A stretch of DNA of 64,000 nucleotides from an uncultured virus (IMG/VR IMGVR_UViG_3300042471_001823) (IMGVR_UViG_3300042471_001823), one strand, 5' to 3'. Positions 10,613-43,211 are shown, numbered from the stretch's first letter. Made by a program: numbers and translations. Notes: generated by a model from the sequence alone, not told the origin.

Positions 10613-10740
10613 TGTTTTGCGGTAATTAAATTCGTTGCTAGTCAAAATTTATGTTAGCTAAAAAGCCCGTGATTGCAGTCAATCACGGGCTTTTTAATGT
10701 GTTATTATTGTGAATGATTGATTAGGGCGGGTGGGGAATT

Positions 10741-20872: not shown

Positions 20873-21017
20873 AGTTTTTAGTACTGCAAATTAACCCGCT
20901 TTAACATTGTAAAGTTTTCACAAACCACTAATCAATCCGCTTTAGCATCATAGAGTTTTTGTGCTTTACTAATTAATTCACTTGCTTTGACATTGTAAAA
21001 TTTTCATGAACCACTAA

Positions 21018-26148: not shown

Positions 26149-26421
26149 TCACGGCAACCGCTTCAACCACTGCCCCACTGCCAACCCAATCAGTCCATTA
26201 GCAAGGCATGACAGCGCCATTTCTTGGATACTGCCATGAGGCAATAGCAGATAGACTACTACGCTTGCCTCAATGGTTTGACAGTAGATGCACTCAGCTA
26301 GGATTTGCCCTAGCTTGAATCGGTTTAACAGTGATTTTACCCAGATTCCCGTGTGTTTGTACTGGAATATAAACCACTGTAAACCGATGGAGTAGATTAG
26401 GTGGGTACAATAATTATCCAT
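26149..26421 (-). CDS. Small membrane protein
   Basis: Hydrophobic segments; overlaps the stop of the upstream IPQMTI gene. Confidence 0.5.
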   Translation of the reverse strand: MDNYCTHLIYSIGLQWFIFQYKHTGIWVKSLLNRFKLGQILAECIYCQTIEASVVVYLLLPHGSIQEMALSCLANGLIGLAVGQWLKRLP

Positions 26422-27661
26422 TGTTAAATTGTTTTAATTGTTCTAATGCTTTCGTGTTTTTTGCCTTAGCCTTTTCTACCGCTTGCTGTGCAGACTTACT
26501 ATTAGGAGGATTAGCCAACTTCTCATTAGCCCGTTTCAAAGCAACTTCACTGCGATCAACAGCGGCTTTTAATTCCCGTTGCTTCCTGAATGCTTCGTTT
26601 TTGGCTAGGTTGGGTGAGGGGTTGGTTGTTTCACTGGCTTTCGCCATTGCGTCTTTAGCGGCTAGCTTGCCTTCTTTTATTTCTTTTTGCTGATCTTTTA
26701 GTTTGTCAATTTGTGTATACATCTTTCTTTCACGCATTCTCGCTTTACTCCTGACAGCTTTTGCGTTTGCCATTTCTTCTTTGTTTCCACGTTGAGACAC
26801 ACCAAGGGGTACAGCATTTTCAGCGATCTCCCTTTGTTTGCGAGCTTCGTTTTCCAGTGCAGTAATTTTTCTGCCAATTACCATTTCTTGAGGAGTTCGT
26901 CCGTGCCGATCTGCCATTAATTGAATCCCTTTTTCATTGGGGTACGCTTTTGAATCAATTAAATATTTGACGGCTTTTTTTGGATCTTTTAATATTGCCT
27001 CACTCACGACAGATTTAACAGCACTAGCAGCCTGTTTTGCTGCATTAGGAGATGGCATTTCACCAGCGGCATTACTCACAACTTCTTTAGCCGACTTACC
27101 AGACAATCCAAGCCTTGAGTTTGTGGCTTTTTGAGTCTTGCCAACCCGCCTCGATTCAGCGGATGGCTTAGCCCTTAATGACTTGGCAGCGGCTTTAGGG
27201 CTAGGCATTTCATCGACCTTAACAAGGTTGCGATCAGTGAAGGCTCCATAGAGTTTATCCTTGTTTGCGCGTTCATCCCGTTTGTGTTTGTTACGAGCCT
27301 TCATGCGTTCACTTTGGGCAATCCTGTTAGCCTCTTTGCGCCTAGCTCTATCGCCTAACATTTCTTTCCTAGTGATAGCGGCTTGTTTACGCATGGCATT
27401 AACCGCTGGTTTGAAACTGTTAGCATCAACAAAGTGTTGACCATCCTTTTCAACGGTTGGAACCCCTTTTTTGTTGAGTTCAGCGGCTTCTGTACCTGTC
27501 AATGGAGCTACACCACTAACAATATCTTTTGTGCCCTTGTGCTTAGTTATCTTGGCTTCTGCTGTTACGCCACCTTTTGCTACTAAGTTAATTACCCCAT
27601 GAGATGCAATTGTCATCTGAGGGATCTCAATACCAGTAATTTCACTAATAATTTTTAACAT
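26414..27661 (-). CDS. Basic IPQMTI-leader protein 1 (candidate internal virion protein)
   Basis: Starts MLKIISEITGIEIPQMTI; very rich in K/R/A. Confidence 0.8.
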   Translation of the reverse strand: MLKIISEITGIEIPQMTIASHGVINLVAKGGVTAEAKITKHKGTKDIVSGVAPLTGTEAAELNKKGVPTVEKDGQHFVDANSFKPAVNAMRKQAAITRKEMLGDRARRKEANRIAQSERMKARNKHKRDERANKDKLYGAFTDRNLVKVDEMPSPKAAAKSLRAKPSAESRRVGKTQKATNSRLGLSGKSAKEVVSNAAGEMPSPNAAKQAASAVKSVVSEAILKDPKKAVKYLIDSKAYPNEKGIQLMADRHGRTPQEMVIGRKITALENEARKQREIAENAVPLGVSQRGNKEEMANAKAVRSKARMRERKMYTQIDKLKDQQKEIKEGKLAAKDAMAKASETTNPSPNLAKNEAFRKQRELKAAVDRSEVALKRANEKLANPPNSKSAQQAVEKAKAKNTKALEQLKQFNNG

Positions 27662-27807
27662 AACTTTTCCCACCCCTAATCAATTACTACAAACCTAGTT
27701 AACTATTCCCTAAGTCAGTCATAGTTGACTAACCTAATCAACTATCACCAATCTATCATAAAAACACCAGCTAACAAATATTTGTTAGCTGGTGTTTCGT
27801 GATATTT

Positions 27808-27936
27808 CTATTTCTTCTTTTTTGGTGGCATCGTGTCATCACAATCGCCATCGTCATCATAATAAGGTTTAGCAGGCTTTTTAGGAGAACTAGCAGGCTT
27901 GGTTTTGACTGGCTTTTTAGGTGCTTTGGTTGGCAT
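27808..27936 (-). CDS. Small Lys/Pro-rich protein (42 aa), not in the ORF track
   Basis: Translated by hand: MPTKAPKKPVKTKPASSPKKPAKPYYDDDGDCDDTMPPKKKK; TGTATAAT upstream and a hairpin terminator at 27764-27797. Confidence 0.55.
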   Translation of the reverse strand: MPTKAPKKPVKTKPASSPKKPAKPYYDDDGDCDDTMPPKKKK

Positions 27937-28069
27937 AATGTTGATTGATTAATGGATATTTGAATTATACATGAGGGTAAATAGCTAATAGCAAAACATG
28001 ACGCAAAACCAAGACATAATCACAAAGCCAAAACACAATCACAAGTCAAAAAACACGCTTACAAACAAA

Positions 28070-28264
28070 TTAACCAGACTTCTCAATAATCGTCTCCAAT
28101 GTCTTATAAAAGAACTTAGTCAGCATTTGCATTTGAGGTACAGACATGGTGACAGTACCGCCAAAATCATCAGCAATAGTCACAGTTTGTTTGTCTGTGT
28201 CAACATCGATTGTGGGGCAACACGTTGTTTGACAACTGGCAATATAGCGGTAGATAGGCATCAC
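28070..28264 (-). CDS. Small hypothetical protein (CxxxCCP motif)
   Basis: Coupled to the upstream gene by overlap; CCPTI...V.IADDFGG.V.M. Confidence 0.55.
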   Translation of the reverse strand: MMPIYRYIASCQTTCCPTIDVDTDKQTVTIADDFGGTVTMSVPQMQMLTKFFYKTLETIIEKSG

Positions 28265-28722
28265 ACATACTCCAAATCAATCGTAATATAAATCGCACAA
28301 ACCCAATTAGTAGTCACAATACTATCAGAAATATTACAAACCTGTCTTAAAGCCGTTGCCGCTGTAGTGTCTTGATAGATTTTGTGATTACCAGACAAGC
28401 CTTTAACTTGCCTAATTCCAGTGGCACAAGTTAAAAACCAATCAGCCAAAATACCAACTACATCTGTAATATATTGCGCTGCGATTATCGAAGCACCTTG
28501 AATGTCATTATTGGCAATTACAAATAGTTTCCCAATATACCATTGAGTTGACTTAATCTTTGACACAGGGTTGTAATTGACCCCGCCAATCCGCAAACCT
28601 AAAGTTGATGACGGCTGACTGACAAAGTTATAAGGCTTCATGCTTACCCCTTGGTAATCACCCGCTAACCCATTGCTGATTAGTAGTGATTCTAGTTGGC
28701 TTGATAAAGTGAGGAGATCCAT
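28261..28722 (-). CDS. Hypothetical, possibly neck/tail-completion protein
   Basis: 153 aa, divergent from the coat gene. The function is inferred. Confidence 0.45.
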   Translation of the reverse strand: MDLLTLSSQLESLLISNGLAGDYQGVSMKPYNFVSQPSSTLGLRIGGVNYNPVSKIKSTQWYIGKLFVIANNDIQGASIIAAQYITDVVGILADWFLTCATGIRQVKGLSGNHKIYQDTTAATALRQVCNISDSIVTTNWVCAIYITIDLEYV

Positions 28723-28869
28723 ATTGTTTTTACGCTTTAAAACTCAATGTTTCACAAACATGAAACATACTGTATAATAATAGCAAATGTCTGGGCATAG
28801 CCCTGTATTTACCGATTTGGTAAAGCCGTTACGTTTCAAGAAAACCAAACTAATACAGGGTAATTAAAT

Positions 28870-30210
28870 ATGCCTAGAGCCACAGTGCCAGAGTTGCGCG
28901 TTGCAATGCTGGCTAAAGAGTCTTTAACTCAGTTGAAGTACAATTCTGTTATTCCTTTGACTGGTGTAATCGATTACGAAAAGGGCAGCTTTGTCCTTGA
29001 TGACAGTGTAAAAATCCGCCGTCCTAAGCGTCGTATTGCTGTAGATTATGACCCTCGCGAGGGTGGTGGCATCAACACTGAAGCTGAGTTCTTTGGTGGT
29101 ACGCTTAGCCTTGAAAAGCTGTGGCGTGATTCCTACCCCGTCTACAGCAACACACCTGATCGCAGTTTTGAGTTATATGTAACTGAAACCGCTACTCAGA
29201 TTGCCGATGCCATCGGACGCGCTAATGACCAGTATTTAGCCGCTAAATTACGGGCTTATACCGCCACCAGTGGTAATGTACCTGTGTACTTAGGCGATCA
29301 CCCGTTCATCGCGATGACTGCATCGGTAGACCCTACCACTGGACAGCTTGCCAAGTTTCGTTCTGATGCACTGCTAAGCGCACGTACCACGCTAAAGAGT
29401 ATGGACGTACCTGACAGTGACTTGTATGGCGTGTTATCCACCGCTGCTGAGGGTGCATTCATTGGTGATGCTACTGAATTGAACCGCTATGTGGCTGCCC
29501 AAATCCCTGGCGCTAATGGTGGTCAAGCCATGTATCAGCAAGGGATTCGCCGCGCCCAATTTATTGACCGCTATGGTATCAAGTGTACTGGCAGTAACAG
29601 TATTTATGGACAAAGCGCTGTAACCGCCCTTGACGCTGCTAATGCCGCTGTGTTGCCTATTGCGTCCGTTGCCGAAGATACTACCAAGTTCTTTTATGCT
29701 GACATGATGGGCAATGTCCCCATCGGATGCTTAGACATCACCTTAACGGCTAACACGGCTTTAAGCCCTACCGTTGGCATCGGTCACATTGTGCGAATCG
29801 GACCTAGCACAAGCAATGCACAGCCCAAGGGCTTTGGGGTAATCCTACGAATTAACAACGCTGCTACCACCGCGCCGATCATTACGATGGCAGTCTATAC
29901 CCCCGATGGTCGTCAATTACGGGCTGGTGAAATCGTAGCTGGTACTGATGTGTTTAGCATCCCCTTAGTGCCATCGGTTAACCCTGTTTACCACCGCGAA
30001 GCATTGCTGATTGCTAACCGTGAATTGCGTACCGATAACGCTCAAAACGTGTTGGTTAAGACCGTTGTTGACCCTGACACCAAGCTGACCTTGCAACTGT
30101 TCCAAGGGAACTTTGATATTGACCGTTTGCGGTCTATCAATGCTGCCTACTGCCTCACTGGTGCTAAAGTCAGTGACTGGCGTAAAGGTTGCTTTGTCTT
30201 GTCTCTGTAA
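28870..30210 (+). CDS. Major capsid protein, P22 coat-like (HK97 fold)
   Basis: DSVKIRRP motif, AxQIADAIGRANDQYL helix, ARTTLKSMDVP, C-terminal GAKV; biased codon use; followed by a terminator at about 30220-30259. Confidence 0.8.
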   Translation: MPRATVPELRVAMLAKESLTQLKYNSVIPLTGVIDYEKGSFVLDDSVKIRRPKRRIAVDYDPREGGGINTEAEFFGGTLSLEKLWRDSYPVYSNTPDRSFELYVTETATQIADAIGRANDQYLAAKLRAYTATSGNVPVYLGDHPFIAMTASVDPTTGQLAKFRSDALLSARTTLKSMDVPDSDLYGVLSTAAEGAFIGDATELNRYVAAQIPGANGGQAMYQQGIRRAQFIDRYGIKCTGSNSIYGQSAVTALDAANAAVLPIASVAEDTTKFFYADMMGNVPIGCLDITLTANTALSPTVGIGHIVRIGPSTSNAQPKGFGVILRINNAATTAPIITMAVYTPDGRQLRAGEIVAGTDVFSIPLVPSVNPVYHREALLIANRELRTDNAQNVLVKTVVDPDTKLTLQLFQGNFDIDRLRSINAAYCLTGAKVSDWRKGCFVLSL

Positions 30211-30300
30211 TTGTTTTTTAACCTAGTCTAGGCACATAAATTAATAGCTAGACTAGGTTCGATTTCATTCAAAACGCTATTTTTAGCAAGGTAACAACCC

Positions 30301-30864
30301 ATGCCATATATTCCAAACACTACAGGGGCTTATACTCCTGCTATTACGATCCCGCCTGAAGCGTCGCGATTACAGCATCCTGAAGTTTTACGGGCTTTTC
30401 AGAACTATGTCGCTCGTCAAGGTGCATCCTATGATGTCCGTGCTACTGCCAGTTTTGAAACCGATGTGATTGACGCTCTGTTGGCACTGAACAACGGCTT
30501 AGGTGTCATCAACAGCACTGCAACCATTACCATCAGCAATGCAAGCGCTAGTGTTGCCACTGGCATTGTTATTCCCGCTGGTGTACGGGTAATGAGTGCG
30601 GTAGCTAAGATTAGCACCGTAGTCACTGCTACGACAGCGGTTAAGGTTGGTTTAGGGATTTCCAGTGACCCTGACAAGTACAACTTAACCTCAGCACTGA
30701 CTGTTGCCACCTATGGCGGTTTCTTGGCTAGTCCAGTCATTACCACTGCTGCTGAAACCCTGTTGCTCTATGCCTGTGATACTAGCGGTGCAGCGGCTGG
30801 TACGATTAACAGCGGCGTGGTGACGGTTCAAGTTGTGTATCAGACTTTGCCTCCATTGCCTTAG
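30301..30864 (+). CDS. Probable capsid decoration/cement protein
   Basis: Directly after the coat gene; Ala/Thr/Val-rich beta protein with IPAG.RV motif. Confidence 0.6.
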   Translation: MPYIPNTTGAYTPAITIPPEASRLQHPEVLRAFQNYVARQGASYDVRATASFETDVIDALLALNNGLGVINSTATITISNASASVATGIVIPAGVRVMSAVAKISTVVTATTAVKVGLGISSDPDKYNLTSALTVATYGGFLASPVITTAAETLLLYACDTSGAAAGTINSGVVTVQVVYQTLPPLP

Positions 30865-30995
30865 ATTTGACTTATGGCGGTAAGTTATTACCGCCATAGC
30901 AACCAGTCACAAAACACCACTAACTAGCCATAAAGCATTATTAATTAATAACAGAACAACACCAATTAATCATAAAACTAAGAGGTTATTTATCT

Positions 30996-31358
30996 ATGTC
31001 TGATTCAGTGCCAATGCGTCACCACACGGGCGTAACCGTGATTGTCCCTACTAATTTGCAACAAACCTATCAACGACAAGCCTACGCCCCTATCCCTCAA
31101 TATCGCGCACCTATTGCGGTTCCAGTGCCAGTTGAAAGTCAATTGCCCCTAGCTGAGGTGTCTGCACCTAAGATCAAAATCAACGACGGCTCTGTGACCG
31201 CTAAAACGTTGGTAGACAGCCTCAAGCTACCTATGGCTACTGCTAAGCAAGTTGTGGCTGGGAAGCCCTACGATTCGCTAAACACCTTATCTGAAAAGGT
31301 TAGTGATTATCAATGGAGCGCCTTTACTGAGGTGTTTGATTTTAGTCCAGCAAGTTAG
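30996..31358 (+). CDS. Hypothetical protein with an HhH-like C-terminus
   Basis: IKIND...L...ATAKQVVAGKPYDSL; GAGG SD. Confidence 0.5.
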   Translation: MSDSVPMRHHTGVTVIVPTNLQQTYQRQAYAPIPQYRAPIAVPVPVESQLPLAEVSAPKIKINDGSVTAKTLVDSLKLPMATAKQVVAGKPYDSLNTLSEKVSDYQWSAFTEVFDFSPAS

Positions 31359-31451
31359 TTGGTTAAAATTAACCCAATAAATAATGCCCTGTAAACATTT
31401 ACAGGGCATTATTTATTGTATAATAATAATTACCATTTATTTAGTAAGTTT

Positions 31452-31718
31452 ATGAAGTTTTATGAAAGTCCGTTTCATGCTATTGAACCTGATGCATCAA
31501 CAGCCAAGAAAATAGCGGCAAAGGCGGATACGGCTGTTTCCCTGAGAAATATTGTTATCACAAAAAAGATAACCCCGCAAATGTTGCATGAAAAGTTTGA
31601 AGACATTTCTGAAGATTTTGCGGAAAGTATTATTGCTGATATTTTGGCTGGTAATATCCATCTGTTTGCTGATGGTGTACTGGAAAATTTGCTTGAAAGT
31701 TATCTTTCACAGTTTTAA
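31452..31718 (+). CDS. XRE/HTH_37-like regulator (degenerate)
   Basis: YESPFHAIE.D...A..IAAKAD....LRNIV pattern. Confidence 0.45.
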   Translation: MKFYESPFHAIEPDASTAKKIAAKADTAVSLRNIVITKKITPQMLHEKFEDISEDFAESIIADILAGNIHLFADGVLENLLESYLSQF

Positions 31719-31878
31719 TTGACTTGAGGGATTAATTATTTATTTAATAGCAAAGCCTATAGTTTGACCTATAGGCTTTGTGGTGTTTTAGGGGTTAACC
31801 TGAGATAAGTGCTTTGACGATGCGATCAACGGCGGGTAGTGAATAGTATCATTTTTAAAATGATACTATTTTAGTCAA

Positions 31879-32571
31879 CTAGCGAATATACCGCGCCGCT
31901 TTAGCCATAGCTTGTTCTGGTTCCATGTCATCAACCATAATATAATCAGCAACCAACTCTTCAAACTTGGCAATGTTTCTCAGTTTTGCTGAATCCAATG
32001 TGTTACGAAAACCAGCGTCTTTATGGGTTTTGCGGTAGATTGCGTATTCAGATGACAGCTTACAAGCCGAATAGGTTTGCAATGTCATCAACCCGTAGTT
32101 AAGCTGTTGACCACGCTCAATTAAATGCTTGATAGCATCAGTCAAAGAGCGTCGATAAAATTTGCCATCTTGACGATCTTTAAGCCATTCTTGACGATTG
32201 ATCTTTTCAAATTTAAGCCCAAAAGCATCGCTAAACAATTGAATCAAAGCCAGTCCAATCATGTCCCGCTGGAAAGCGATCGCTTTTTCGTTGCCGCGCA
32301 ATGCAAGTTCAAGGGCTACAGTCTCAAACTCAGTCAGGGACAAAATGTTAACCGCTTTTGGGTTTAGCTCAGATTTTACCGTGTCGAACTGAAAATCCTT
32401 GCCTAGCAAGGATTTGATGCGTCTTGAGGCTTGATTGAGGTCGAATTGAAACAACTCAGCAACTTGAGACACAGCGATCGCAAAGTCACCATTAGGCAAC
32501 ATCAAACCATCAACAATTTGATGTCCGATGTCCACAGGAGCGACAATAGCCTTTACAATATTATTTGACAT
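31879..32571 (-). CDS. Antirepressor-like DNA-binding protein, paralog of 25405-26097
   Basis: Colinear with the 25405 protein over 230 aa. Confidence 0.75.
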   Translation of the reverse strand: MSNNIVKAIVAPVDIGHQIVDGLMLPNGDFAIAVSQVAELFQFDLNQASRRIKSLLGKDFQFDTVKSELNPKAVNILSLTEFETVALELALRGNEKAIAFQRDMIGLALIQLFSDAFGLKFEKINRQEWLKDRQDGKFYRRSLTDAIKHLIERGQQLNYGLMTLQTYSACKLSSEYAIYRKTHKDAGFRNTLDSAKLRNIAKFEELVADYIMVDDMEPEQAMAKAARYIR

Positions 32572-32778
32572 TCGTTTACCGTTTTGGATGTGTGTTTTTT
32601 ACCTCAGATGGCTTAACATCTGGGGTATTTTAATATTTTACCATTTTTGACTAAAAAATACTAGAGTTGTTTAAGCAAATCCCGTTACCAGTAAATGGTT
32701 TTGAGTGATGACTGCCTACTCAAGCAATTGCCATCACTCATTAAAAAATCACCATTCCTTTAGGCGATAGTCACCCAC

Positions 32779-33996
32779 CTATTTAAACGAATAACTAGTA
32801 CGTCCCAAAAGATCCTCATTCCTAGCGAATCGATTCAAGTTCTTAGTGGCAGATTTAAGCCGTCTAGACGCTTCTAACCGCTTTTCATTCATTGCCTTAC
32901 GCTTTGCAGTAGCGGCGGTTCTATCTGCCAATTTCTTACGATTCAGCATCTGTTTGCGTTCAGCGGCTTGCCTTGCTTTGTTGGCACTGATTTGTTTAGC
33001 TCTGGTTTCGGCACGGGCTTTGTTGATTGAACCAGAGATGCTAGAAGCCTTATTGCTTAATGCTTTGATAGCATTACTACCAACTGCTTTAACAGAAGAG
33101 CCAATGCCTGTGATTTTATCCCTAGCCTCATACCCCGCGTTTTTGATACGGTCAATCATTGAGGCTCTGTTGTCATTGAATCCAAAGCTGTTGCCATAAT
33201 TGCTAAGGATTGGGCGTGGGGGATTTACCATCGTAAAACCTTTGGACTTAGGGGATGGTGTCACAATAGGCTTACCCCGTCCAGCAATTTGCCTAATTGC
33301 TACTAAACCCTGAGCATTGCTAATCTTGCCTTGGTCAACAGAATTTCTAATATTAGCAATCACCGCCTTGATGTAGTCATTAGACCCTTTACGCATGAAT
33401 TGACCACCGATCTCAGGCGTACCCTTTGGATACCTAGGATGTAGCAATGATTGGGGAATACCTAGGCTTTTACCCGTCAAGTGCTGAGGTGAAGTGAGTA
33501 CCCGATACGGCTTGTCACCTGACATTTTTAGGGTAGCTTTTTTGGGCAATACCCTAGCACCCTTCATGTAATTCTTGTTAGAGGGTGGTAGAGCATTGGT
33601 TGCTTGTCCCCTTTGCTTAGCCAAATAGTTTGCAGCGTTTTTGACCAAAGCACTAGGATTTGCTTTGGCTAGATTTGATTTAATTCTTGATAGGATGTTC
33701 CCAGCGCTTTGAGTTTTAGGAGGTTTAACAAACAATCGACTCGCACCACGAGTGATATTTTCTTTGACTTGTTGGACATTAATCCCTTTGTCCCCAAAAG
33801 TGAATAATGGTTGCTTGTTTTTGGGCTTGTTTTTATCTATAATCACCCGCCCTGATGGTGTCACATCAATGGTTATAGGCTTTGCTTCACCAAACAAACT
33901 GCCTTTTCCGCTTACTGTGCCACTTATTTCTTGTTTTTTGATCGTCATCTGAGGGATGGCAATTTCAAAGCTTTTTTCTATTAGAATTTGTAACAT
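32779..33996 (-). CDS. Basic IPQMTI-leader protein 2 with an HPRYPKGTP module
   Basis: Starts MLQILIEKSFEIAIPQMTI (ATG at 33996 after GGGGA); very basic. Confidence 0.8.
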   Translation of the reverse strand: MLQILIEKSFEIAIPQMTIKKQEISGTVSGKGSLFGEAKPITIDVTPSGRVIIDKNKPKNKQPLFTFGDKGINVQQVKENITRGASRLFVKPPKTQSAGNILSRIKSNLAKANPSALVKNAANYLAKQRGQATNALPPSNKNYMKGARVLPKKATLKMSGDKPYRVLTSPQHLTGKSLGIPQSLLHPRYPKGTPEIGGQFMRKGSNDYIKAVIANIRNSVDQGKISNAQGLVAIRQIAGRGKPIVTPSPKSKGFTMVNPPRPILSNYGNSFGFNDNRASMIDRIKNAGYEARDKITGIGSSVKAVGSNAIKALSNKASSISGSINKARAETRAKQISANKARQAAERKQMLNRKKLADRTAATAKRKAMNEKRLEASRRLKSATKNLNRFARNEDLLGRTSYSFK

Positions 33997-34106
33997 TTTT
34001 AGATCCCCGTGTAATAATAGAAATAATAACACGATTAATTCATGGCAAGCTAATTTAATTAATTGGCTGATTAGCTCATGTTTTAACAATTAAACCCTTC
34101 AACACC

Positions 34107-36125
34107 ATGCTACAAATTTTCAGCATTACAAGCGATCAAGCTATTCCCCAAATGACTATTACTCACCATGTGATAGGTGAGTTGGTTAATACTAGGGGTA
34201 TTAAAACTGATGGAAAGTTTACGAAAAGTAAATATATTAAAGGGGTTTTGGTTGGTGAAATTCCGATCAAAGATGCAATCAAGCCTTATGTTCATTTAGA
34301 ACATGATTCCAAAGAGTCTAGGGTTTTAGTGCCTACTGAAACTAGAAATGGTCAACTATTTGTTGATAAAAAAGTCATGGAGCCTCAGATTGAGAGTGCT
34401 AAAAACATGGCTAAGGAATGGATTAAAATCAAAGCTGAGGTCAAGAAAGCCCAAAATAAAGCCAAGTCTGACAGGATGAAACGGGAATATGCTGAGGCTA
34501 CAAATAAAGTAAGGGAACTAAAACCGTTTGAAATTACAGTGGGTAAGGTGATCCACAAAATACCCGCTGAGGGGAAAATTGTATGGGCAAAAGATGATAG
34601 CTTATTGTCTGAACTCTCAGGGGCTAGACCTTATCGAGTGATGCCTGAGACTGCAAACCGTGACCACACTGGCTACGTTCGCACTGATCCTAAAAACAAC
34701 AGTCAGCCAGAATTAACTTTCAAAACCAAAGAGCAAGCTCAAAGGTATGCTGATAAGCTGAATCGTGCTATTGATAAAGCCAATAAAACTGCTACAAAAG
34801 TTGAGAAAACCAATAAGACTAGTACAAAAGTTGACAAGCCTGACTCAAAAGGCAGTAGAACTAAGCCAAGCGAACTAAAACCGTTTCAGGTCACAATGGG
34901 GAACAAAATCCATTTAATTCCCACTGATGGAAAAATTGTGGTTTCTCCCATACTTGATCCAATAGGACGGTATCCTTATAGGATTGAAACTATTGGCGCT
35001 TCTGATATAAGTATCCGCACCATTCAAGGCAATAGCCAACCAGTTTTAAAATTTATAAGCCAAGAGCAAGCTCAAAGGTATGCAGACAAGCTAAACCGCG
35101 CTATCGAACGGGCTAACAAACCGCCGTCACCAAAGAAGGCTAAAGCTGTAATTACCAAAAAAACTGAATTGAAACCACTAGAAACCTCAGTTGATGCATC
35201 ATCGCCAATTCAGACCGATTTATTTGGAAATAATGAAGTTTTGCCAAATCCAAAACTTACTAGTCCCCAAAATATCGATCAAAAAGATATTAAAAACACA
35301 GTTTTTTCCAAAGAAATGAAAGCTCATGTAAACAATGTTTTAAATGAAGCTGAAAAGCAGTTAAAAAAGAAGCAGCCAGAAGATTTCAGGAAATACAATA
35401 GATTGAAAAACGAAAAAGATATATTGAATGGTAAATTTAAGTATATCCCTGAAGAATATCGATCCAATCAAACGCAGTTGAATGGATATGGAGTGAAAGA
35501 ATTAAACCGAGAAAAGAAACGTTTAATCGCTATAGAATCAGACAAACCTAACGATTCTGGATGGGTTTTATACGATCCAATTAAAGAGGCGAAAACAACA
35601 AAATCTAAAATCAATGAATTATTGGTTGCCGACGGCAAATCACCTCAGTTTAAGCCAAATGAAACTGACGGCAAAAAATATTATGATGATAATATCAGTA
35701 AATACACCAGACCTACACTTAACGAAAAAGGCAAAAAAGCTTTGGCTGAAGTAACAAAACAACTTAACTCATTGCCATTCCATGAAACCCCTACGGTTCA
35801 AATCGATTTAAGTCGTTATGGTGGCGGCATCCTTGAAGTCAACAAATCTCAAGAAGCTTTTAATGAAATCAGGAAAAACATTAATAACGCCCCTGAAACT
35901 GTTTCTTCTATAACTCCTAATCCGTTAAAAAACATCCCTTATGGAAAAAGAAAAGAATGGAACTCAGCGCTAAAATCGGGTCAAATCGATCAAGCTACTT
36001 ATGATTTGCTGGTCAATACCACGCCAAAACCCGTCAAGATTAACAAAGGTCTAACCGCTGCTAAAATAGCGCTAGATTCTGGCAAAAAGACCGCCAAAGC
36101 TTTATCCCCTACACAGAGAAATTGA
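34107..36125 (+). CDS. Basic IPQMTI-leader protein 3 with an internally duplicated domain; probably continues into 36148-36537
   Basis: Starts MLQIFSITSDQAIPQMTI; two copies of ELKPF...EQAQRYADKLNRAI..ANK. Confidence 0.8.
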   Translation: MLQIFSITSDQAIPQMTITHHVIGELVNTRGIKTDGKFTKSKYIKGVLVGEIPIKDAIKPYVHLEHDSKESRVLVPTETRNGQLFVDKKVMEPQIESAKNMAKEWIKIKAEVKKAQNKAKSDRMKREYAEATNKVRELKPFEITVGKVIHKIPAEGKIVWAKDDSLLSELSGARPYRVMPETANRDHTGYVRTDPKNNSQPELTFKTKEQAQRYADKLNRAIDKANKTATKVEKTNKTSTKVDKPDSKGSRTKPSELKPFQVTMGNKIHLIPTDGKIVVSPILDPIGRYPYRIETIGASDISIRTIQGNSQPVLKFISQEQAQRYADKLNRAIERANKPPSPKKAKAVITKKTELKPLETSVDASSPIQTDLFGNNEVLPNPKLTSPQNIDQKDIKNTVFSKEMKAHVNNVLNEAEKQLKKKQPEDFRKYNRLKNEKDILNGKFKYIPEEYRSNQTQLNGYGVKELNREKKRLIAIESDKPNDSGWVLYDPIKEAKTTKSKINELLVADGKSPQFKPNETDGKKYYDDNISKYTRPTLNEKGKKALAEVTKQLNSLPFHETPTVQIDLSRYGGGILEVNKSQEAFNEIRKNINNAPETVSSITPNPLKNIPYGKRKEWNSALKSGQIDQATYDLLVNTTPKPVKINKGLTAAKIALDSGKKTAKALSPTQRN

Positions 36126-36147
36126 CGCTAAATACGCTAAAGGCAAG

Positions 36148-36537
36148 ATGGCAACAAATCACTACTTGGCTAAGGAATATGGCGGTAAATGGTCTGGTAG
36201 AGAGGGTGTTTACATCATCTCACCCGCTGGGGCCAAGAAAATGAAAGATGAACTCAGGGTAAAGCGAACACCAGTGTATCAACGCACGGTTAAGGAGTAT
36301 TTAGCTAATGATGGTGCAGCCCGTTTATTTGAAAAAGAATCAAAAGAATTAAGAAAGAAATACAAAGATGATCGTGATTATGAATATGGAATGGAAATTC
36401 AAGGGACAAACGGTTTATTGCCTTATGTTAACGAACTTAAGGGGCAGCACCGTCAATCCGTAGTTGATGCGTTGGCTAAGGGGTTAAAGGTTCCTGCTAA
36501 GGTGCTGAAGGATTATCCTGAGTTGAAAAATCAATGA
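36148..36537 (+). CDS. Protein ending in a polyvalent-protein-like motif; likely the C-terminal part of the 34107 gene
   Basis: HRQSVVDALAKGLKVPAKVLKDYPEL; its frame is open from 36076. Confidence 0.6.
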   Translation: MATNHYLAKEYGGKWSGREGVYIISPAGAKKMKDELRVKRTPVYQRTVKEYLANDGAARLFEKESKELRKKYKDDRDYEYGMEIQGTNGLLPYVNELKGQHRQSVVDALAKGLKVPAKVLKDYPELKNQ

Positions 36538-36614
36538 TTAAAATTATTGAGTTAAAACCAAAAAGCACATGATTTATTTCATGTGCTTTTTGGTTTAATT
36601 ATCTAATCAATCCG

Positions 36615-39404
36615 CTACTTACTCCCACTAATCAAACACTTATCACTATCACACCCAGCAGGACCCGCTTCAACGATATTGCCACCGTCATCATATTTCA
36701 TTAGAGCCTCATGGAAGTCTAACTCTTTACGACGCAACAGCATCTCAGCAAACAATCGATCATAGGTGCGTTTGTCAATCGGTTCAAATGGCAATCGAGG
36801 GAATGTCTGCAAGTCATCAAACCGTGCCAACAATGCCGATGAAATGTAGCCTTCATCATTTTGGATAGCATCATAGATTCGCTTGGCTAGCGCTTCGATT
36901 TCGTGCTGACGTAGCTCAATAGTACTTGAAGTGTTATGACTGGTATAATACTTCTGCACTTGCATATAGAAGTCAAACTGTGCCAGTGCTGAGAATCTGC
37001 TAATATCAATCTTGTCAGCACCATCAAGGTTAGCCCAAGGCACTTCTACTGGGATTTCCACTAGCCATTCAGTACAGCGTGGATCAAACGGATCGTCAAG
37101 TAAATGTCCGTTCTCATCCTTGTCTGATTGCGACGGAATTACGTTATAGCCGTAGTCGATACAAGCTAATGCCACAGGGTCATTCTTACGGAATGTGATC
37201 CGACGGATAAAGCGCTGTGCTTTAGGGGGATGCCAACCAGGGGACGCGCCGGTGAGTAAGCTCTTGCTACCACTAGGTTGAACCGTAGTACACCGGCTAG
37301 GCGTTTTTAACCCATGATGCTCACAGTAACCCGCCACCGTTTCAAAGGTGATCATTCTCCAGTAACTCAGGTAATGGCGCTCTAAGTCACGGTACAACTG
37401 ACTACAGCTATAGAACACCCGATCATCAATCATGCATTGATAAGATTCTAAGTCGATGTCAAATTGGGTCAAGATTTGATTGTCAGGGCAGATGGCAACA
37501 AATTCTGACCATTTCAAATACCAGTCGCATCTGCCATCTGCCCACCATTGCAACCAGTTCGCACCAAAAGCATTAACAAAGAAGTCAAACAAGCCAGTGA
37601 TTGACACGCCAACAATAGGATCGGCTTCACGGCTTTCTTTATACCGCTGGTCTACAAACTGGTGATTAAGTAGCACTGATACGGACAGCGCACCCGCCAT
37701 AAATGCTTTTTCTTGATCAACAAAATCCGTCGGACTGATTTGGTTTAAGTGGATTTCGGCTAGGTTGCAAAAGAAGTTTGATCCGATGATTTCACCGCAG
37801 GGATTCAAACCATATCTCTGAAACCGATGCTCCAACTCTCTCTCTGTCAGTGACGGAAACTGACTGACTAGCCATTTTTTAGCGGCTTCGATACCGTCCT
37901 CATAGGCTTTAAGGAATTGGGTCTTAGCATCACTATCGATTGGCAGTAAGTCAGCATTAGCCCTAGCCACTGCCTCTGGTGCATACTGAATTGCGCCTTC
38001 ACCCGAAAAGTATTGCTTGGTTACGGATGCGATGCACTCATCAAGGCTTGGCTTATGGTGAAATACACGGGTATGGTTTGCCATCCGCAATGCATCGCGT
38101 TCAGGGTCAATCTGCCATTTGCCGGTAACAGCGTTCTGTTGCCATAGATTATCCTTAGCAGTCATGCCTAACGTGTCGTTTTCGGAGAACTGCCTCATGC
38201 CTGCTGAGTTTGAAACTAGCAAACCGTTACAGACAAACTCATGAACCGTTGAAACCTCAATATCAAAAGTGTGATCGGTTCTTACGTCATATTCAATGGA
38301 AGTAATAGCCACTCGCTTTGATTTGCCCGTAGTGGCATCAAGTGCTAAAAGGCGATCGTCGGTTGTGGCATATTGAGCTTTGATCATTTGATACCTGTCG
38401 CCACTAATATCAATCGCAATCTTGTGATCCTTGGTGCATTCCAAAACGTGACCTTCAACGGTTTCAATCCGACACAGTGCCTGCTCACCTTGATCAAAAA
38501 AGTCAGTCACGGGATAAAACCCCTTGCTGGTTAACACCATGTCACCAATCCGCATTTTTTCGATAGGCACTAAACCAGATTGAGTGTGAACCAGTGAGCC
38601 TTTGGGCAAACATCGCCTAATATTCCCAGCTACCACCACCAAAGCCGCTTCATCGATCAACAAGCAACACTCAACGGAATTGAGCTTGCGCCCTACGGCT
38701 TTACTTAGAATTTCAGCACAGCGGGTATACAGCGATTCAACCTTTACGGGATTAGCCACACCACCAAAACCCTTAAGGGCTTCACCCGACGGACGCACGT
38801 TTGATAAGTCTACTGTGACATGAACCACATACTCAGGATCGAACTTGGCATCAGATGACAGCTTTAAAAAATCTTCATAGGATTTGACCCAACCCTCTCG
38901 ACTGTCCCCAACTTCAATTAGTACATCGTTCCAAGGGTAGTCAATAGTTGTGCGGGTTTGTTGCAATCGCTGATCTGCGGGTTTGTCACCAACATTACCC
39001 TTAATTGTCACCTCAAACCGATTAACAATCACTGGCAACTGCTCAATATATTGAGGCTCTAGTACTGCACCAGTACCACAACCTTGCATGGCTAAACCCA
39101 TCATCAATCCAAATGAATGCCAGTCCACAATATTGGTGCTACTACAGTTATAACTGCCATAGTAGTTTTCGGGCTTGTTACTCCAATCAGTACCACCAAC
39201 CCACAGCCATCGTCCTGATGTCAATGCCTTGAGGCTCTTTTGCGCCTCATCAATCAGGCGAACTTGATCCTCAGTCAGATTGCCAATGGATTGCAAACCC
39301 TTAAGCGTCCGCAAACATACTTCATCCCAATGCTCTCTAACCCCATTGACTTTCCGGCTGTACGTCCGGTAGAAAACTGGATACGCTGTTGCTGCTGATT
39401 GCAT
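36615..39404 (-). CDS. nrdJ: Class II (adenosylcobalamin-dependent) ribonucleotide reductase with intein
   Basis: PVFYRTYSR, SGRWLWVGGT, YNCSS, VVAGNIRR/SAGMRQ, GLNPCGEI, TTVQPSG, C-terminal GPAGCDSDKC. Confidence 0.95.
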   Translation of the reverse strand: MQSAATAYPVFYRTYSRKVNGVREHWDEVCLRTLKGLQSIGNLTEDQVRLIDEAQKSLKALTSGRWLWVGGTDWSNKPENYYGSYNCSSTNIVDWHSFGLMMGLAMQGCGTGAVLEPQYIEQLPVIVNRFEVTIKGNVGDKPADQRLQQTRTTIDYPWNDVLIEVGDSREGWVKSYEDFLKLSSDAKFDPEYVVHVTVDLSNVRPSGEALKGFGGVANPVKVESLYTRCAEILSKAVGRKLNSVECCLLIDEAALVVVAGNIRRCLPKGSLVHTQSGLVPIEKMRIGDMVLTSKGFYPVTDFFDQGEQALCRIETVEGHVLECTKDHKIAIDISGDRYQMIKAQYATTDDRLLALDATTGKSKRVAITSIEYDVRTDHTFDIEVSTVHEFVCNGLLVSNSAGMRQFSENDTLGMTAKDNLWQQNAVTGKWQIDPERDALRMANHTRVFHHKPSLDECIASVTKQYFSGEGAIQYAPEAVARANADLLPIDSDAKTQFLKAYEDGIEAAKKWLVSQFPSLTERELEHRFQRYGLNPCGEIIGSNFFCNLAEIHLNQISPTDFVDQEKAFMAGALSVSVLLNHQFVDQRYKESREADPIVGVSITGLFDFFVNAFGANWLQWWADGRCDWYLKWSEFVAICPDNQILTQFDIDLESYQCMIDDRVFYSCSQLYRDLERHYLSYWRMITFETVAGYCEHHGLKTPSRCTTVQPSGSKSLLTGASPGWHPPKAQRFIRRITFRKNDPVALACIDYGYNVIPSQSDKDENGHLLDDPFDPRCTEWLVEIPVEVPWANLDGADKIDISRFSALAQFDFYMQVQKYYTSHNTSSTIELRQHEIEALAKRIYDAIQNDEGYISSALLARFDDLQTFPRLPFEPIDKRTYDRLFAEMLLRRKELDFHEALMKYDDGGNIVEAGPAGCDSDKCLISGSK
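38208..38612 (-). mobile_element. Mini-intein (135 aa, no homing endonuclease) in NrdJ
   Basis: IRR|CLPKGSLVHT...TKDHKI...FDIEVSTVHEFVCNGLLVSN|SAGMRQ: Cys1, block B TxxH, terminal Asn, +1 Ser. Confidence 0.92.
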
Positions 39405-39548
39405 ATTTATTAGGTATAAACGTTTTTATATTATACACTAATTCGATGGTGCTGCGCTAATTTAATGGCATTAAAGCAGTTCGATGCTATTGCATTAATT
39501 TGATACCACCAAATCAGCTTGATACCACCAAAGAAAAGCGTTTTTATA

Positions 39549-40377
39549 TTATTTTCACTTTCTTCCTTGAAAATAGGTGTTTTTTCGTTAAAACCTAATT
39601 ATCTTAACAATAGATGGTTGACTGTTTTTAAGTGAATTTTTCTGGAAAAAGTTAGAGAACTTTTAGCTAAATCCCACATTCTTCTTCGGATCTCCCTTAT
39701 ACAGATCTTATTCAAGTTTTTAAACTTGGTTTTTTTGGACTGAGGGTGGCATGGTTTGACTTGAAGTTTTAGGCGGGTTGATCCAATGCCTTGGAAATCA
39801 TGGTTTTTACGATAGGACGGCTTTTATGCAATTAGTTGCATATTTTGGATTAAAGCCTATGCAATTAATTGCATAAATCTTAGTGATGAGCCGGTTCGTG
39901 ACATGTAATTAATTGCCTAGACTTTTTATATAAATTTCACTTTCTTCCTTGAGTTGGTGGTTTGAGGCATCAAAAAACAGGGTGAAAAATACATGATAAG
40001 AATCGGTGATTTTTAGCTAGTTTTCCTACAACTTTTAGCCAAATCCCACATTCTTCCTTGAAATCCCCTTATACAGATCTTATTCAATTTTTTTTGACTT
40101 GGTTTTTAATCTGAGGGTGCGAGCCACGATTTTCAGGCTAAGGTCTAGGTGACAGTAAAACTTGGTTTTTTGGACTTAACCTAGGGATTGGTTTTAACCA
40201 CTGGCTTATAAGATTCACCTTTGAATTTGGATTTTCCCATAAATCCACCTGCATCAAAAACACGGATATACGCTCTATTGCCTCAAAACTAGCGCTTAAA
40301 GACGTTTGATTTGATTCCAAGTACTAAGAGATGGTTAAGGGTAAAACAAGGGCGTTAGAAGCGATTTTAAAGGCAAT
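39549..40377. repeat. Palindromic repeat element copy C (half element)
   Basis: K boxes at 39661 and 40033 (+), three palindromes at 39826-39918, central hairpin 40278-40376; then it ends. Confidence 0.93.
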
Positions 40378-40467
40378 CCCACAAAAAAGACGCATGATTT
40401 TTTGCGATCATGCGTCTCTGGTGCTTGTTAGCAGTCTCTGGTGTTTGCTGACAGGCTTTAATGATTG

Positions 40468-41841
40468 CTAATAGTCACTGCCAATCCATTGCCGGAGTTT
40501 GCCAACACGGGTGTTAAAGCGTTCGTTTAGATCCTTGTCTTTGAACTGGAGATGTACAGTGCCTTTTTTGAACACCTTGATGTGAAAGAAAGTAGATTCA
40601 ATCGTGTCCGTTCTTTTGTGTACCCAGCTAGATAACGCGCTGTCAATGGTTACAATATTTTTGATGTTGGTTCCGCTTAGGATGCACATTGCTTTGTCAA
40701 TGTCGTTGTAGTTGCTAGTCCGATGGTGGCAAGTTGCAAAACCCCATGAACTATGGTTGATACCCCGTTCAATAATCATTTTGGTGTTAAGCTTTGAGGC
40801 TTTGTTGGTTTTCCATCCTTCACCAACCACGCAATTGGCATGATTGCGGGTCAAATAATCAAAAACATGGCACAAGGAATCATCATCAATTTGTGATTTA
40901 TTCTGCCAAAACATCAGCAGCATTTCCTTAATGTTTGACTCAGTAAAAGCTAGTTGAACCTGATCATTAGCCCAATTAGTAAACTTTTCCTGAAAGTCAG
41001 AGGTTGCGCGAGATTGCAACTCAGTTTTAATAAACACAGTCCGCCAAAACCTTGCTTTTAGTTCTGCAAGCATTTCAGGATAGGTAACGCGAGACGTTAA
41101 AGGCTCTTTGTTTGATTCACCAACATAAACCGCAATGCCTTGCAAGGCAAAGTTTAACTGTTCTTGTGCTACAAACTTTTGTCTAAGCGCTTCAACTGCC
41201 AATTCATACTGATGCACCAAGGTTTTGATTACATCGTTTTTGCCAAGTGTGGCAGTCTTGTTTGTGGAGATCGCCGCTTCAATATTTTCAACGGTAAAAT
41301 CATCAATCGAAAAGTTAAAGCCACACTGCGTTTTAGGCTTGTCAAGGGTGATCATTACCACTTCAACTGAGGTTTTACGCTCGGCATCAGCAAAGCAATC
41401 ACCTAGATTTTCGACACTGCCATGAATCTCGATTAGTTGGCTAAGCTTAGCCTTGGTTTGATTGCCTTGGTTTAATACAGTCACTGGCAACAAACAAACT
41501 ACGCGACCACCATCACTTAAAATCTCCCATGCATGAAGCAGGTGATCAATGCCATCGCTAAATGGCGGATTCATGATGATTGAATCAAATGACGATTTCT
41601 CATTAAATTCTAAGAAATCGCTACCGATGACTGCGTATTTTTTACCTTTGAGTGTACTGGCTAGATCAGGGTCTAGCTCAATCGCCTTAACTTCAGACGC
41701 ATGATAACGGGACACATCCAACAAGTCCCCTTTACCCGCGCTAGGATCTAGCAATCTAACAATGCGTCGATCCCGCTTCAAGGCTTCAATCATTCTTAAA
41801 GCAATTGCTTTAGGGGTGGGATAAAACTCAACACCAAACAT
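40468..41841 (-). CDS. Amino-methyltransferase fused to a DUF4942-like domain
   Basis: FYPTP, LDPSAGKG, IIMNPPF motifs; C-terminal GWKTN...STFFHIKVFKKGTVHLQFKD. Confidence 0.85.
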   Translation of the reverse strand: MFGVEFYPTPKAIALRMIEALKRDRRIVRLLDPSAGKGDLLDVSRYHASEVKAIELDPDLASTLKGKKYAVIGSDFLEFNEKSSFDSIIMNPPFSDGIDHLLHAWEILSDGGRVVCLLPVTVLNQGNQTKAKLSQLIEIHGSVENLGDCFADAERKTSVEVVMITLDKPKTQCGFNFSIDDFTVENIEAAISTNKTATLGKNDVIKTLVHQYELAVEALRQKFVAQEQLNFALQGIAVYVGESNKEPLTSRVTYPEMLAELKARFWRTVFIKTELQSRATSDFQEKFTNWANDQVQLAFTESNIKEMLLMFWQNKSQIDDDSLCHVFDYLTRNHANCVVGEGWKTNKASKLNTKMIIERGINHSSWGFATCHHRTSNYNDIDKAMCILSGTNIKNIVTIDSALSSWVHKRTDTIESTFFHIKVFKKGTVHLQFKDKDLNERFNTRVGKLRQWIGSDY

Positions 41842-41996
41842 AAATAAACTTGAAATCGATACTAGCACACTCCCATGATTAATATTATTTGTCAATACAT
41901 TAAATAATAAGTGTTATTGATTAAGTTTTAGTGTTTTTGGTAGGTTGGCTTATGGATTAGTTTTAGCTAATAGCATTATTACTGATTAGGCTTTAG

Positions 41997-43211
41997 CTAA
42001 ACATACCCATATTTTTCTGCCAACTTTTTAGCGGCACTAGCGGATAAATGCATGTATCCGTTTTTGTCAACATCTCCAAGCCCTAAATGCTTGTAAAAGG
42101 GGATGGCTTCTTTTAGGGGCGTGAGATGCAGTGCCCCTTTAAACCCTAACTCTTTGCTCTTTTTAGACGCTTCTAGAATCGCTGTAGCACCCGCACCCTT
42201 GACCTTTCTTTTGTTCTCATGGATATTCCAAGGTGCGGTTGCCAACAAGTCAACATAGAAACCATGATCGGGATCTATGCTGTAAAGCATTGCTGCTTGC
42301 ATAACTTTTTTTCGATCTCTTACGATGATATTCGGGTAATCGCCATTGTTTTCCAACATAAAATCAACAACACCCCGATTGTTTTTTAACTGCCTATTTT
42401 CTTCTGGGGTAATACTTTCGGTCATCGGATGAGTTGAAAACAATGTTTTTTGCAAATGGGTTTCCCACTTGTTTAATTCTTTATCAAAAGCCGCTTTAGA
42501 CAAGTTTTCTTGGCTATGGAAACCTAGTTTGGTGTTAGGTATTGACAAGCTTTGAATCTCTTTGGTTTTCTCAGTAAGTTTCCTTTTTTGCTTTTGCAAG
42601 TGTTTGTTTTTTCTGACTTGCTGAGAGATGCCTTCAAGTTGTTTTTGAGCATCATTGACTAGCCGTCGTGATTTTGCCAATGCATTGCGATTACCCGCAG
42701 ATTTGTGATCCTCTTGCGCTTCTTTTTCTTGTTCAATAACTGCCTTTAAATCTCTTTGCTTAGCAGTCAAACTTCTGATAGACTCAGTAGATGCAATCTT
42801 TTTCTTAACTGTTTGTAGTGCATTACTAACCTGTGGAACGCCTGTTTTTAACTCATCATTGAACTGGACAATCTTTAACTTTTGAGCCGCTTTTTGAGCA
42901 TCAGCTAATGGTATCCGTCCTAGTTTTACAGCTTTAGCCAAATTAGAAGCAACTGCTACTTTGTAGTCATTACTGCCTTTCTTCATGAATTTACCACCTT
43001 TTCCGTTAGGAGTTCCTTTGGGGTATCTAGGATGGGCAATATTAAAAGGAATAGCAGCACCAGTAACATTAGAATGAGTGGCAGTAACATCAGAAGGAAT
43101 AGCAGTGCCGGTAATTTGAGATTTCTTGTTTGACAATGGCGTATTTTGACTGCCTACAATTGTCATTTGAGGGATAGTAATAGGGCTTTGAATTGTAAAA
43201 ATTTTTAGCAT
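41997..43211 (-). CDS. Basic IPQMTI-leader protein 4 with HPRYPKGTP module and C-terminal GNAT acetyltransferase
   Basis: Starts MLKIFTIQSPITIPQMTI; C-terminal YVDLLATAPWN...KGAG...GFKGALHL.PL.EAIPFYKHLG. Confidence 0.82.
   Translation of the reverse strand: MLKIFTIQSPITIPQMTIVGSQNTPLSNKKSQITGTAIPSDVTATHSNVTGAAIPFNIAHPRYPKGTPNGKGGKFMKKGSNDYKVAVASNLAKAVKLGRIPLADAQKAAQKLKIVQFNDELKTGVPQVSNALQTVKKKIASTESIRSLTAKQRDLKAVIEQEKEAQEDHKSAGNRNALAKSRRLVNDAQKQLEGISQQVRKNKHLQKQKRKLTEKTKEIQSLSIPNTKLGFHSQENLSKAAFDKELNKWETHLQKTLFSTHPMTESITPEENRQLKNNRGVVDFMLENNGDYPNIIVRDRKKVMQAAMLYSIDPDHGFYVDLLATAPWNIHENKRKVKGAGATAILEASKKSKELGFKGALHLTPLKEAIPFYKHLGLGDVDKNGYMHLSASAAKKLAEKYGYV

Follow-up and report, generated by a model that had tools for sequence, protein, structure and literature searches.

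Among the proteins encoded on a stretch of 64,000 nucleotides from the uncultured virus IMGVR_UViG_3300042471_001823 (the whole stretch is here called the window) are four large, basic proteins which open with the same short peptide, and the question raised by this locus is what that peptide does. The four open reading frames (ORFs), with starts at 27661 (−), 33996 (−), 34107 (+) and 43211 (−), begin with ML[KQ]I-x8-9-IPQMTI, a leader of 18–19 residues whose consensus widens to ML[KQES]I-x8-9-IPQMTI when relatives are included. On balance, the leader is most likely an N-terminal virion-loading tag on polymorphic injected effectors, analogous and not homologous to the capsid-targeting sequence (CTS) of phage T4. 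T4 already provides an example of a capsid-address peptide common to the N-termini of several proteins. What is new here is the setting, namely an uncharacterised phage group, apparently of filamentous cyanobacteria, in which the scaffold-like gene is separate and no protease is visible, together with the sequence of the tag, its combination with the swapping of ADP-ribosyltransferase (ART) and GNAT modules, and its link to a widespread HPR[YD]P header.

The leader and the proteins that carry it

The four proteins and the parts recognised within them are listed below, each leader being identified by its pattern, its codons and a leader profile.

26414..27661, minus strand: P0001, 415 amino acids from its ATG, net charge +39, no Cys; leader and ~105-residue N-domain in common with P0003, the rest a K/A/E-rich tail with no family hit
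27608..27661, minus strand: leader of P0001, MLKIISEITGIEIPQMTI
32779..33996, minus strand: P0002, 405 amino acids from the ATG at 33996, net charge +54, no Cys; orthologues P0128 and P0062
33940..33996, minus strand: leader of P0002, MLQILIEKSFEIAIPQMTI, with a 9-residue spacer
33397..33441, minus strand: header motif HPRYPKGTPEIGGQF inside P0002
34107..36125, plus strand: P0003, 672 amino acids, net charge +41, no Cys; leader, N-domain, two ~100-residue repeats and a long C-terminal part ending ..KKTAKALSPTQRN
34107..34160, plus strand: leader of P0003, MLQIFSITSDQAIPQMTI
41997..43211, minus strand: P0004, 404 amino acids, net charge +29, no Cys; leader, HPRYPKG header, helical linkers and a predicted C-terminal GNAT fold
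43158..43211, minus strand: leader of P0004, MLKIFTIQSPITIPQMTI
42987..43034, minus strand: header motif HPRYPKGTPNGKGGKF of P0004 (residues 60–75)
42000..42344, minus strand: predicted GNAT-fold domain of P0004 (residues ~290–404), from AlphaFold, Foldseek and the homologue P0036

An earlier note on this DNA had described four ORFs with this start, and these were found to exist as described. The back-translated hexapeptide, ATHCCNCARATGACNAT, has 4 matches in the window against a mean of 0.00 in 100 dinucleotide-preserving shuffles, with no shuffle containing a match, and a six-frame regular-expression scan placed an ML[KQ]I...IP start nowhere in the window except at these four places. A hidden Markov model (HMM) built from 11 leaders gave 35.0–43.3 bits on the four proteins and −0.5 bits or less on the other 51 of the 55 window ORFs. 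The codons of the invariant IPQMTI vary at third positions only (ATC/ATT, CCT/CCC, CAG/CAA, ACA/ACG/ACT, ATT/ATC), and the codon for Leu2 of the leader is TTA or CTA. As the differences within the hexapeptide are confined to wobble positions, selection acts on the peptide, in agreement with what had been proposed. Signal peptides of the Sec, Tat and lipoprotein types possess a core of about 7 hydrophobic residues or longer. The four leaders contain no Cys, and their longest run of hydrophobic residues measures 2–3; the leader is thus not a Sec-type signal, as the earlier note had likewise held. The leader spacer alternates hydrophobic and polar residues (I-F-T-I-Q-S, I-I-S-E-I-T), and a purine-rich stretch lies 8–14 nucleotides 5′ of the first ATG in three of the four genes, with none before the internal ATGs. 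No mention of IPQMTI was found by a literal search of the literature.

With lengths of 404–672 amino acids and a K/R content of 16–21%, the tagged proteins fit their previous description as K/R-rich proteins of 400–800 residues. Their net charge of +29 to +54 compares with −32 to +7 for the other 24 window ORFs of at least 200 amino acids; they are the only strongly basic large proteins in the window, and all are Cys-free. The claim that they are otherwise different was found to be true between pairs and not within them. P0001 and P0003 have their first ~125 residues in common (32% identity, E 3e-13), and P0002 and P0004 have in common a HPRYPKGTP..GG.FM.KGSNDY block (E 2e-8) which lies at different distances from the leader, whereas between the first pair and the second the leader alone aligns.

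In AlphaFold models, residues 1–9 and 11–51 of P0004 and residues 1–41 of P0003 (modelled as residues 1–138) have a predicted local distance difference test score (pLDDT) below 50, from shallow alignments of 26 and 6 rows, respectively. The header region of P0004 (residues 56–120) scored 73–89. The models provide weak evidence that the leader is not part of a predicted fold. As the leader is unmodelled and is all that is common to both pairs, it does not form the opening strands of a fold common to the four proteins, an explanation which the earlier note had itself set against its proposal.

The C-terminus of P0004 (residues 290–404, pLDDT up to 96) was modelled as a GNAT fold and is a predicted acetyltransferase. 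A Foldseek search with the model returned 8 PDB matches at E ≤ 0.001, all of them GNAT acetyltransferases (best E 5.1e-5) and including the tRNA-acetylating toxin TacT3. P0004 itself has no Pfam match at E ≤ 0.1, and no significant match to any of P0001–P0004 was found in Pfam, PHROGs or NCBIfam, nor was a MuF (SPP1 gp7) domain detected in the four with these databases. For P0001–P0003, searches of Pfam with sub-regions and of the ESM Atlas with residues 1–140 of P0003 and with P0002 gave nothing usable. Recognisable domains thus number one (GNAT) in P0004 and, in family searches, none in P0001–P0003.

Exchangeable modules and a wider header

A search with P0003 returned four relatives (P0032, P0033, P0034 and P0035). 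P0033 and P0034 open with MLQIFSITSDQTIPQMTI, retain the N-domain and then diverge in sequence; together with P0035 they have the N-domain of P0003 in common and possess different C-termini. An exhaustive HMMER search with P0004 gave 152 proteins at E ≤ 0.001, 150 of which were listed, and the leader was found in 7 of the 150 matches listed (P0005, P0036, P0039, P0041, P0043, P0062 and P0128). IPQMTI is present in 13 of the 184 proteins collected, nine of them from outside the window in addition to the four within it. In all 13 the hexapeptide stands 13–14 residues after an ML start (IL in P0128).

Enzymatic ends of more than one class were predicted behind the leader. P0039 matched ADPrib_exo_Tox (1e-12) and ART (1.5e-8), and its sequence has the YRG, STS and EKE elements of an R-S-E site (motif definition: PMC5512222). 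An ART match was also obtained for P0041 (2.3e-8), and P0043 reached 25.0 bits for ART-PolyVal, below the cut-off of 31.2. P0036 scored 26.4 bits for Acetyltransf_10 (GNAT), above the cut-off of 23.6. This presence of different C-terminal modules behind one leader and header indicates that the family has a polymorphic effector architecture with a constant N-terminus and exchangeable enzymatic ends.

By eye, two repeats of ~100 residues (ELKPF.[IV]T.G.K.H.IP..GKIV ... QP.L.F...EQAQRYADKLNRAI[DE].ANK) were observed in P0003 at 34500–35130 (+), with a single copy in each of P0032 and P0033. Just after P0003 lies a further ORF:

36148..36537, plus strand: 129-amino-acid ORF in the +1 frame relative to P0003

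This ORF is 96% identical to residues 296–424 of P0033 (its C-terminal 129), where the module is fused in frame to the leader protein. In the window it comes after the stop which follows ..KKTAKALSPTQRN; a bridging peptide, REIDAKYAKGK, is still readable in the +1 frame, and an ATG stands at the position of an Ile in P0033. The arrangement is that of one gene split in two by a small indel, or may instead mark a frameshift site. It was also observed that a junction peptide, ..G(L)..AK..L...KKTAKALSP[TM], ends both P0003 (36060–36125, +) and P0032. It precedes the fused module of P0033 as well, and P0034 has two copies, both followed by new sequence. By analogy with the junction motifs of polymorphic toxins, this peptide may mark module boundaries.

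The orthologue P0128 is nearly identical to P0002 overall; its differences cluster around the leader, where Ile replaces the first Met, KNLKV stands in place of KSFEI and TPTQKSGTARNKSTI in place of KKQEISGTVSGKGSL, with IPQMTI left intact. When residues 1–40 of P0004 were used as a protein query, one match was obtained among 3 candidates, a 97%-identical relative. The leader was absent from the 21-kb loci of the distant relatives L001–L003, and P0003 was found in 0 of 3 genomes (G001–G003). A protein of 108 amino acids beginning MLRISKPLQIKYIPQMTP was considered as a leader relative and rejected as a chance look-alike, as it belongs to an unrelated family (phrog_471, 1.3e-7). The MLRISKPLQIKYIPQMTP protein recurs in marine viral and metagenome contigs (L009–L011, L015, L016, L018, L020, L027, L056, L067, L085 and L086).

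The block found in P0002 and P0004 represents a second header, HPR[YK]P..G.F, of much wider distribution than the leader. HP[RK].P..G.F is present in 20 of the 150 P0004 matches listed, and in nine of ten single-motif proteins without the leader it lies at residues 7–43, the exception being P0138 (residue 510); P0078, a gene call starting at MTI, was left out of this count. The motif is repeated three times in P0175, before each GNAT module, and six times in P0184. A scan of IMG/VR with a 9-sequence header alignment gave 8 loci (L093–L100), which belong to unrelated phages with a GC content of 40 to 66%. The gene order in L096 is terminase large subunit, portal, head-morphogenesis protein (phrog_3517, 3.6e-54), a 1275-amino-acid header protein and coat. 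In L094, terminase and portal genes are followed by a 556-amino-acid ORF and by an ADP-ribosyltransferase (phrog_3895, 3.9e-12) which carries its header at residue 7. Next come a further three MSW..LHPRDP..G.F proteins, interspersed with headerless ORFs, and then the scaffold protein. Two header ARTs precede the coat gene in L095, header and portal domain occupy one ORF in L099, and L098 encodes a protein of 2462 amino acids with RNA-ligase and Nudix matches. The three proteins of L093 (415, 375 and 440 amino acids) have only their first 39–45 residues in common, at 64–78% identity. These contexts show that one N-terminal header on several different proteins per phage is a recurrent head-module design, and P0002 and P0004 belong to this wider header class. 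With regard to previous descriptions of the header, "HPR" has 0 occurrences in the polyvalent-protein paper (PMC5512222), and none was found by literal literature searches. A leaderless GNAT-like protein in L002 (316 amino acids in L004) was observed to have a ..QPRDDHGRW.. variant of the header at its N-terminus.

Proposed virion loading and its alternatives

The tagged genes are interleaved with genes for the portal, scaffold-like and coat proteins:

23877..24776, plus strand: scaffold-like protein, acidic and Gln-rich, assigned by composition and position and without a family hit
28870..30210, plus strand: major capsid protein (coat), weak match to phrog_283 (1.3e-4), with homologues adjoining portal and scaffold-like genes in L001–L003
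43318..45033, minus strand: portal protein (phrog_145, 4.1e-9; 34% identity to the portal ORFs of L001–L003), probable start MAEPTSK.. at 45033

The P0004 gene lies 106 nucleotides downstream of the portal gene on the same strand, and the P0001 gene lies between the scaffold-like and coat genes. It is proposed, by analogy with known systems, that the leader is a portable address which would most likely fasten these strongly basic, Cys-free proteins to some part of the procapsid during its assembly (the portal, the scaffold or the inside of the shell). They would be packed in along with the DNA and be released together with it into the next cell, some of them as enzymes that modify the host. 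In this phage the cargo would consist of the predicted GNAT acetyltransferase P0004 and three proteins without an assigned activity, with ADP-ribosyltransferases carried behind the same tag in relatives. The tag is favoured because the leader is specific and conserved at the peptide level, with cargo modules swapped behind a constant N-terminus, and because ART and GNAT are enzyme classes known or predicted to be packaged and injected. The charge and Cys-free composition of the proteins, their head-gene neighbourhood and the unmodelled leader point the same way, as does the independent head-module context given by the HPRYP header in other phages. Finally, a shared N-terminal loading signal is established in T4 and a short N-terminal signal suffices in P1 DarB. 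A complex prediction for the portal, the scaffold-like protein and residues 1–60 of P0004 gave a score of 0.00 (mark 0.32), which speaks neither for nor against binding.

The T4 CTS is described in PMC3012670 as the only feature conserved among otherwise diverse internal proteins, and T4 Alt, an injected ADP-ribosyltransferase, is placed by PMC5512222 in a larger R-S-E-2 clade. As with IPI–III and Alt, a short N-terminal peptide is here the sole feature shared by diverse proteins, the cargo is basic and includes (in relatives) an R-S-E ADP-ribosyltransferase, and the genes lie with head genes. The present system differs in its unrelated phage lineage, the coat having no match in 50,697 phage records, in its separate scaffold-like gene, and in that the window showed neither a prohead protease nor an apparent acidic cleavage motif. 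At 18–19 residues the tag is also longer, and it ends in an invariant hexapeptide. The lack of a phage match for the coat, together with its weak phrog_283 hit, argues for analogy to the T4 system and not homology.

In phage P1, the first 30 residues of DarB are reported to suffice for loading a reporter protein (PMC9024508). The tag proposed here resembles this N-terminal signal, which has fewer than 30 residues, sends a large injected anti-host protein into the head and is not described there as cleaved. In the same paper the P1 Dar proteins have no consensus N-terminus, unlike the four proteins of one phage and nine in relatives which share theirs here. A constant N-terminal part with exchangeable C-terminal ART or GNAT domains, a gene beside the portal in the head module and predicted delivery with the DNA are likewise described for MuF toxins and polyvalent proteins (PMC5576092; PMC5512222). 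The latter are defined in PMC5512222 by two or more distinct domains per polypeptide, and GNAT and ART are among the domains which it reports in these proteins, predicted to be packaged or injected. In contrast, no MuF domain was detected here, there is at most one recognisable catalytic domain per window protein, and the constant part is an 18-residue leader (plus the HPRYP header in two) and not a folded head protein. The cargo-loading peptides of encapsulins are also short linear peptides which dock diverse cargo inside an HK97-fold shell; they are usually C-terminal, and the compartments are bacterial, without DNA or portal.

A number of results weigh against virion loading by this leader. 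A PHROGs scan of 48 ORFs of the window, itself 64 of the ~119 kb of the genome, turned up no prohead-protease family, which leaves the T4-style scheme of loading and then cutting short of one part. Of the earlier proposal, the address tag gains indirect support and the processing signal none. For the suggested cleavage at Q|M there was no indication: in addition to the lack of a protease among the ORFs scanned, the coat protein starts without a propeptide-like extension, and in L001, a distant relative, the genes for portal, scaffold-like protein and coat follow one another without an intervening protease gene. Shallow alignments account for the leader's low pLDDT, which is no proof of disorder. 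The database gene calls for P0032, P0035 and P0078 take the Met within IPQMTI as their start. In P0128, the close orthologue of P0002, Ile occupies the place of the leader's first Met and the frame is open upstream, so that a strictly N-terminal tag is not proven for P0002. The P0002 frame is itself open upstream to a possible TTG start at 34089, which would leave 17 nucleotides to the divergent P0003 start and add an extension with a Cys, a residue absent elsewhere in P0002. The leader family is also small. The DNA pattern gave 12 IMG/VR and 72 JGI stretches with no family member among them, and a search of 401 genomes from the order to which G002 belongs did not reveal the P0003 N-domain. 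A cultured relative is lacking, P0003 and P0004, like the coat, being without a tblastn match in the phage records.

Some chance, though a small one, is given to the explanation that the tagged proteins are virion-borne and that the leader joins them to each other as an assembly or insertion element, for instance as strands of a common β-structure, in an ejection conduit or a DNA-bound complex after release, similar to the P22 ejection proteins or the T7 core proteins. The alternating spacer would suit β-strands, the P0003 model has short strands at residues 4–5 and 12–13 (pLDDT <50), and the basic charge and head-gene context fit equally well. However, a hexapeptide which never changes, next to a spacer that is free to vary, resembles a site recognised by a single constant partner more than a self-associating strand, ART and GNAT cargo is unexpected in a conduit, and the HPRYP header design elsewhere involves up to four unrelated enzymes. 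It is less probable again that the leader is a regulatory propeptide or degron and that the proteins act in the producing cell without being packaged, the leader keeping enzymes inactive or delivering them, at a defined moment, to a protease or chaperone of the host or the phage. Short invariant linear motifs in unmodelled regions are typical of protease and adaptor recognition sites too, but such a role leaves unexplained the strong basicity and Cys-free state unique to the tagged proteins, their position among head genes, and the header proteins which follow the portal, or are fused to it, in unrelated phages.

The gene calls starting within IPQMTI, the altered first residue of P0128 and the invariance of the Met in all 13 proteins could also be accounted for if translation starts at that Met. 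The upstream sequence would then be an optional extension giving two isoforms or a nucleotide-level element, such as a translation-initiation region or a recombination junction by which the cassette spreads. This is considered improbable, as each of the four window genes has an open frame beginning at the ML start, the entire leader is retained in frame by nine relatives, and the purine-rich stretches precede first and not internal ATGs; moreover, differences in the hexapeptide and ML.I are synonymous or conservative, which is not expected of a DNA or RNA element. Least probable of all is that the leader is a functionless remnant of one ancestral N-terminus copied by recombination onto several genes. 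Module shuffling is rampant in the family and P0001 and P0003 are paralogous over 125 residues, yet all else between the pairs has diverged beyond detection while six residues remain invariant in 13 proteins with synonymous changes, and neutral remnants are not expected to stay so invariant.

A broader form of the loading hypothesis, which is offered tentatively and is doubtful, is that phage heads use a modular and so far undescribed address system of two tiers, the widespread HPR[YD]P..G.F header and the lineage-specific ML.I-x8-9-IPQMTI tag, both of them portable. The header would direct the loading of ADP-ribosyltransferase, GNAT, Nudix and RNA-ligase modules across many phage lineages that are not related, whether it stands alone at the N-termini of several proteins in one phage, precedes each module of a polyvalent protein or is fused to a portal, and the tag of the phages of filamentous cyanobacteria would extend loading to headerless proteins. 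Cargo could then be predicted from sequence, with a use in protein delivery into cyanobacteria. The HPRYP header, found repeatedly at the N-termini of different head-module enzymes of unrelated phages, may be of wider importance. If the leader is indeed a loading tag, the injected arsenal of acetyltransferases and ADP-ribosyltransferases in phages of bloom-forming and symbiotic filamentous cyanobacteria would become readable from sequence, and the T4 idea of one label for many cargoes would have arisen independently under a different head-assembly scheme. The leader would then also be of use as a small, transferable peptide with which foreign proteins could be packed into cyanophage particles.

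Phage lineage and neighbouring features

The window holds portal and coat genes, a class II ribonucleotide reductase gene with a Hint-like insert, and genes for thymidylate synthase, a DNA polymerase III beta clamp, a methyltransferase and ParB-like proteins, and it belongs to a larger phage genome. An identical copy of P0003 is on a recorded contig of 118,834 bases, which suggests that the window (64 of ~119 kb) represents roughly half of the genome. No relatives of 18 kb of the sequence were found by megablast in the 50,697 phage records, and single-protein searches of IMG/VR with P0003, the coat and P0004 revealed no close relatives. In a large protein collection, 26 coat homologues were found, some of them named from records of Fischerella major, Nostoc sp., Dolichospermum sp. 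and Aetokthonos hydrillicola. These names support a host among the filamentous cyanobacteria, in line with the cyanobacterial host assumed by the earlier note. Three of the coat homologues lie on contigs of 112–155 kb.

The possibility that the leader is a copy of a scaffold segment was raised by a resemblance, by eye, of IISE..G in the scaffold-like protein to P0001. It was rejected by the leader HMM, as the scaffold-like protein is outside its 15 best domain hits, which fall to −2.4 bits. A search for a promoter or upstream motif common to the leader genes gave AT-rich 8-mers only, and scans for sigma-70 promoters and terminators remained at chance level. The word TTGATTAGGG had 10 matches against 4.9 expected with one mismatch allowed, a weak signal; TTGATTAGGG-like words were observed just 5′ of P0001 (27674–27683, −), of a 1527-amino-acid ORF (10718–10727, +) and of a 491-amino-acid ORF (20926–20935, −).

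Two paralogues, 56% identical over their full length, were weakly matched to the phrog_2657 "transcriptional regulator":

25405..26097, plus strand: 230-amino-acid protein (phrog_2657, 3.9e-8)
31879..32571, minus strand: 230-amino-acid protein (phrog_2657, 1.1e-6)

Each was observed to adjoin a leader gene (P0001 and P0002, respectively). In L002 (3197–3718, +) and L003 (831–1295, +), small Arg/Gly-rich basic proteins (MARRG..GGQGFGAP..) are encoded near head genes. The B12-dependent ribonucleotide reductase (36615–39404, −; phrog_367, 1.4e-137) has Hint matches at residues ~259–372 which are below Pfam cut-offs, and this insert is probably an intein. A protein of 517 amino acids (4861–6414, −) was found to combine a thymidylate synthase region (Pfam, 1.1e-19) with a C-terminal PterinBD-DUF4346 match (4.2e-9).

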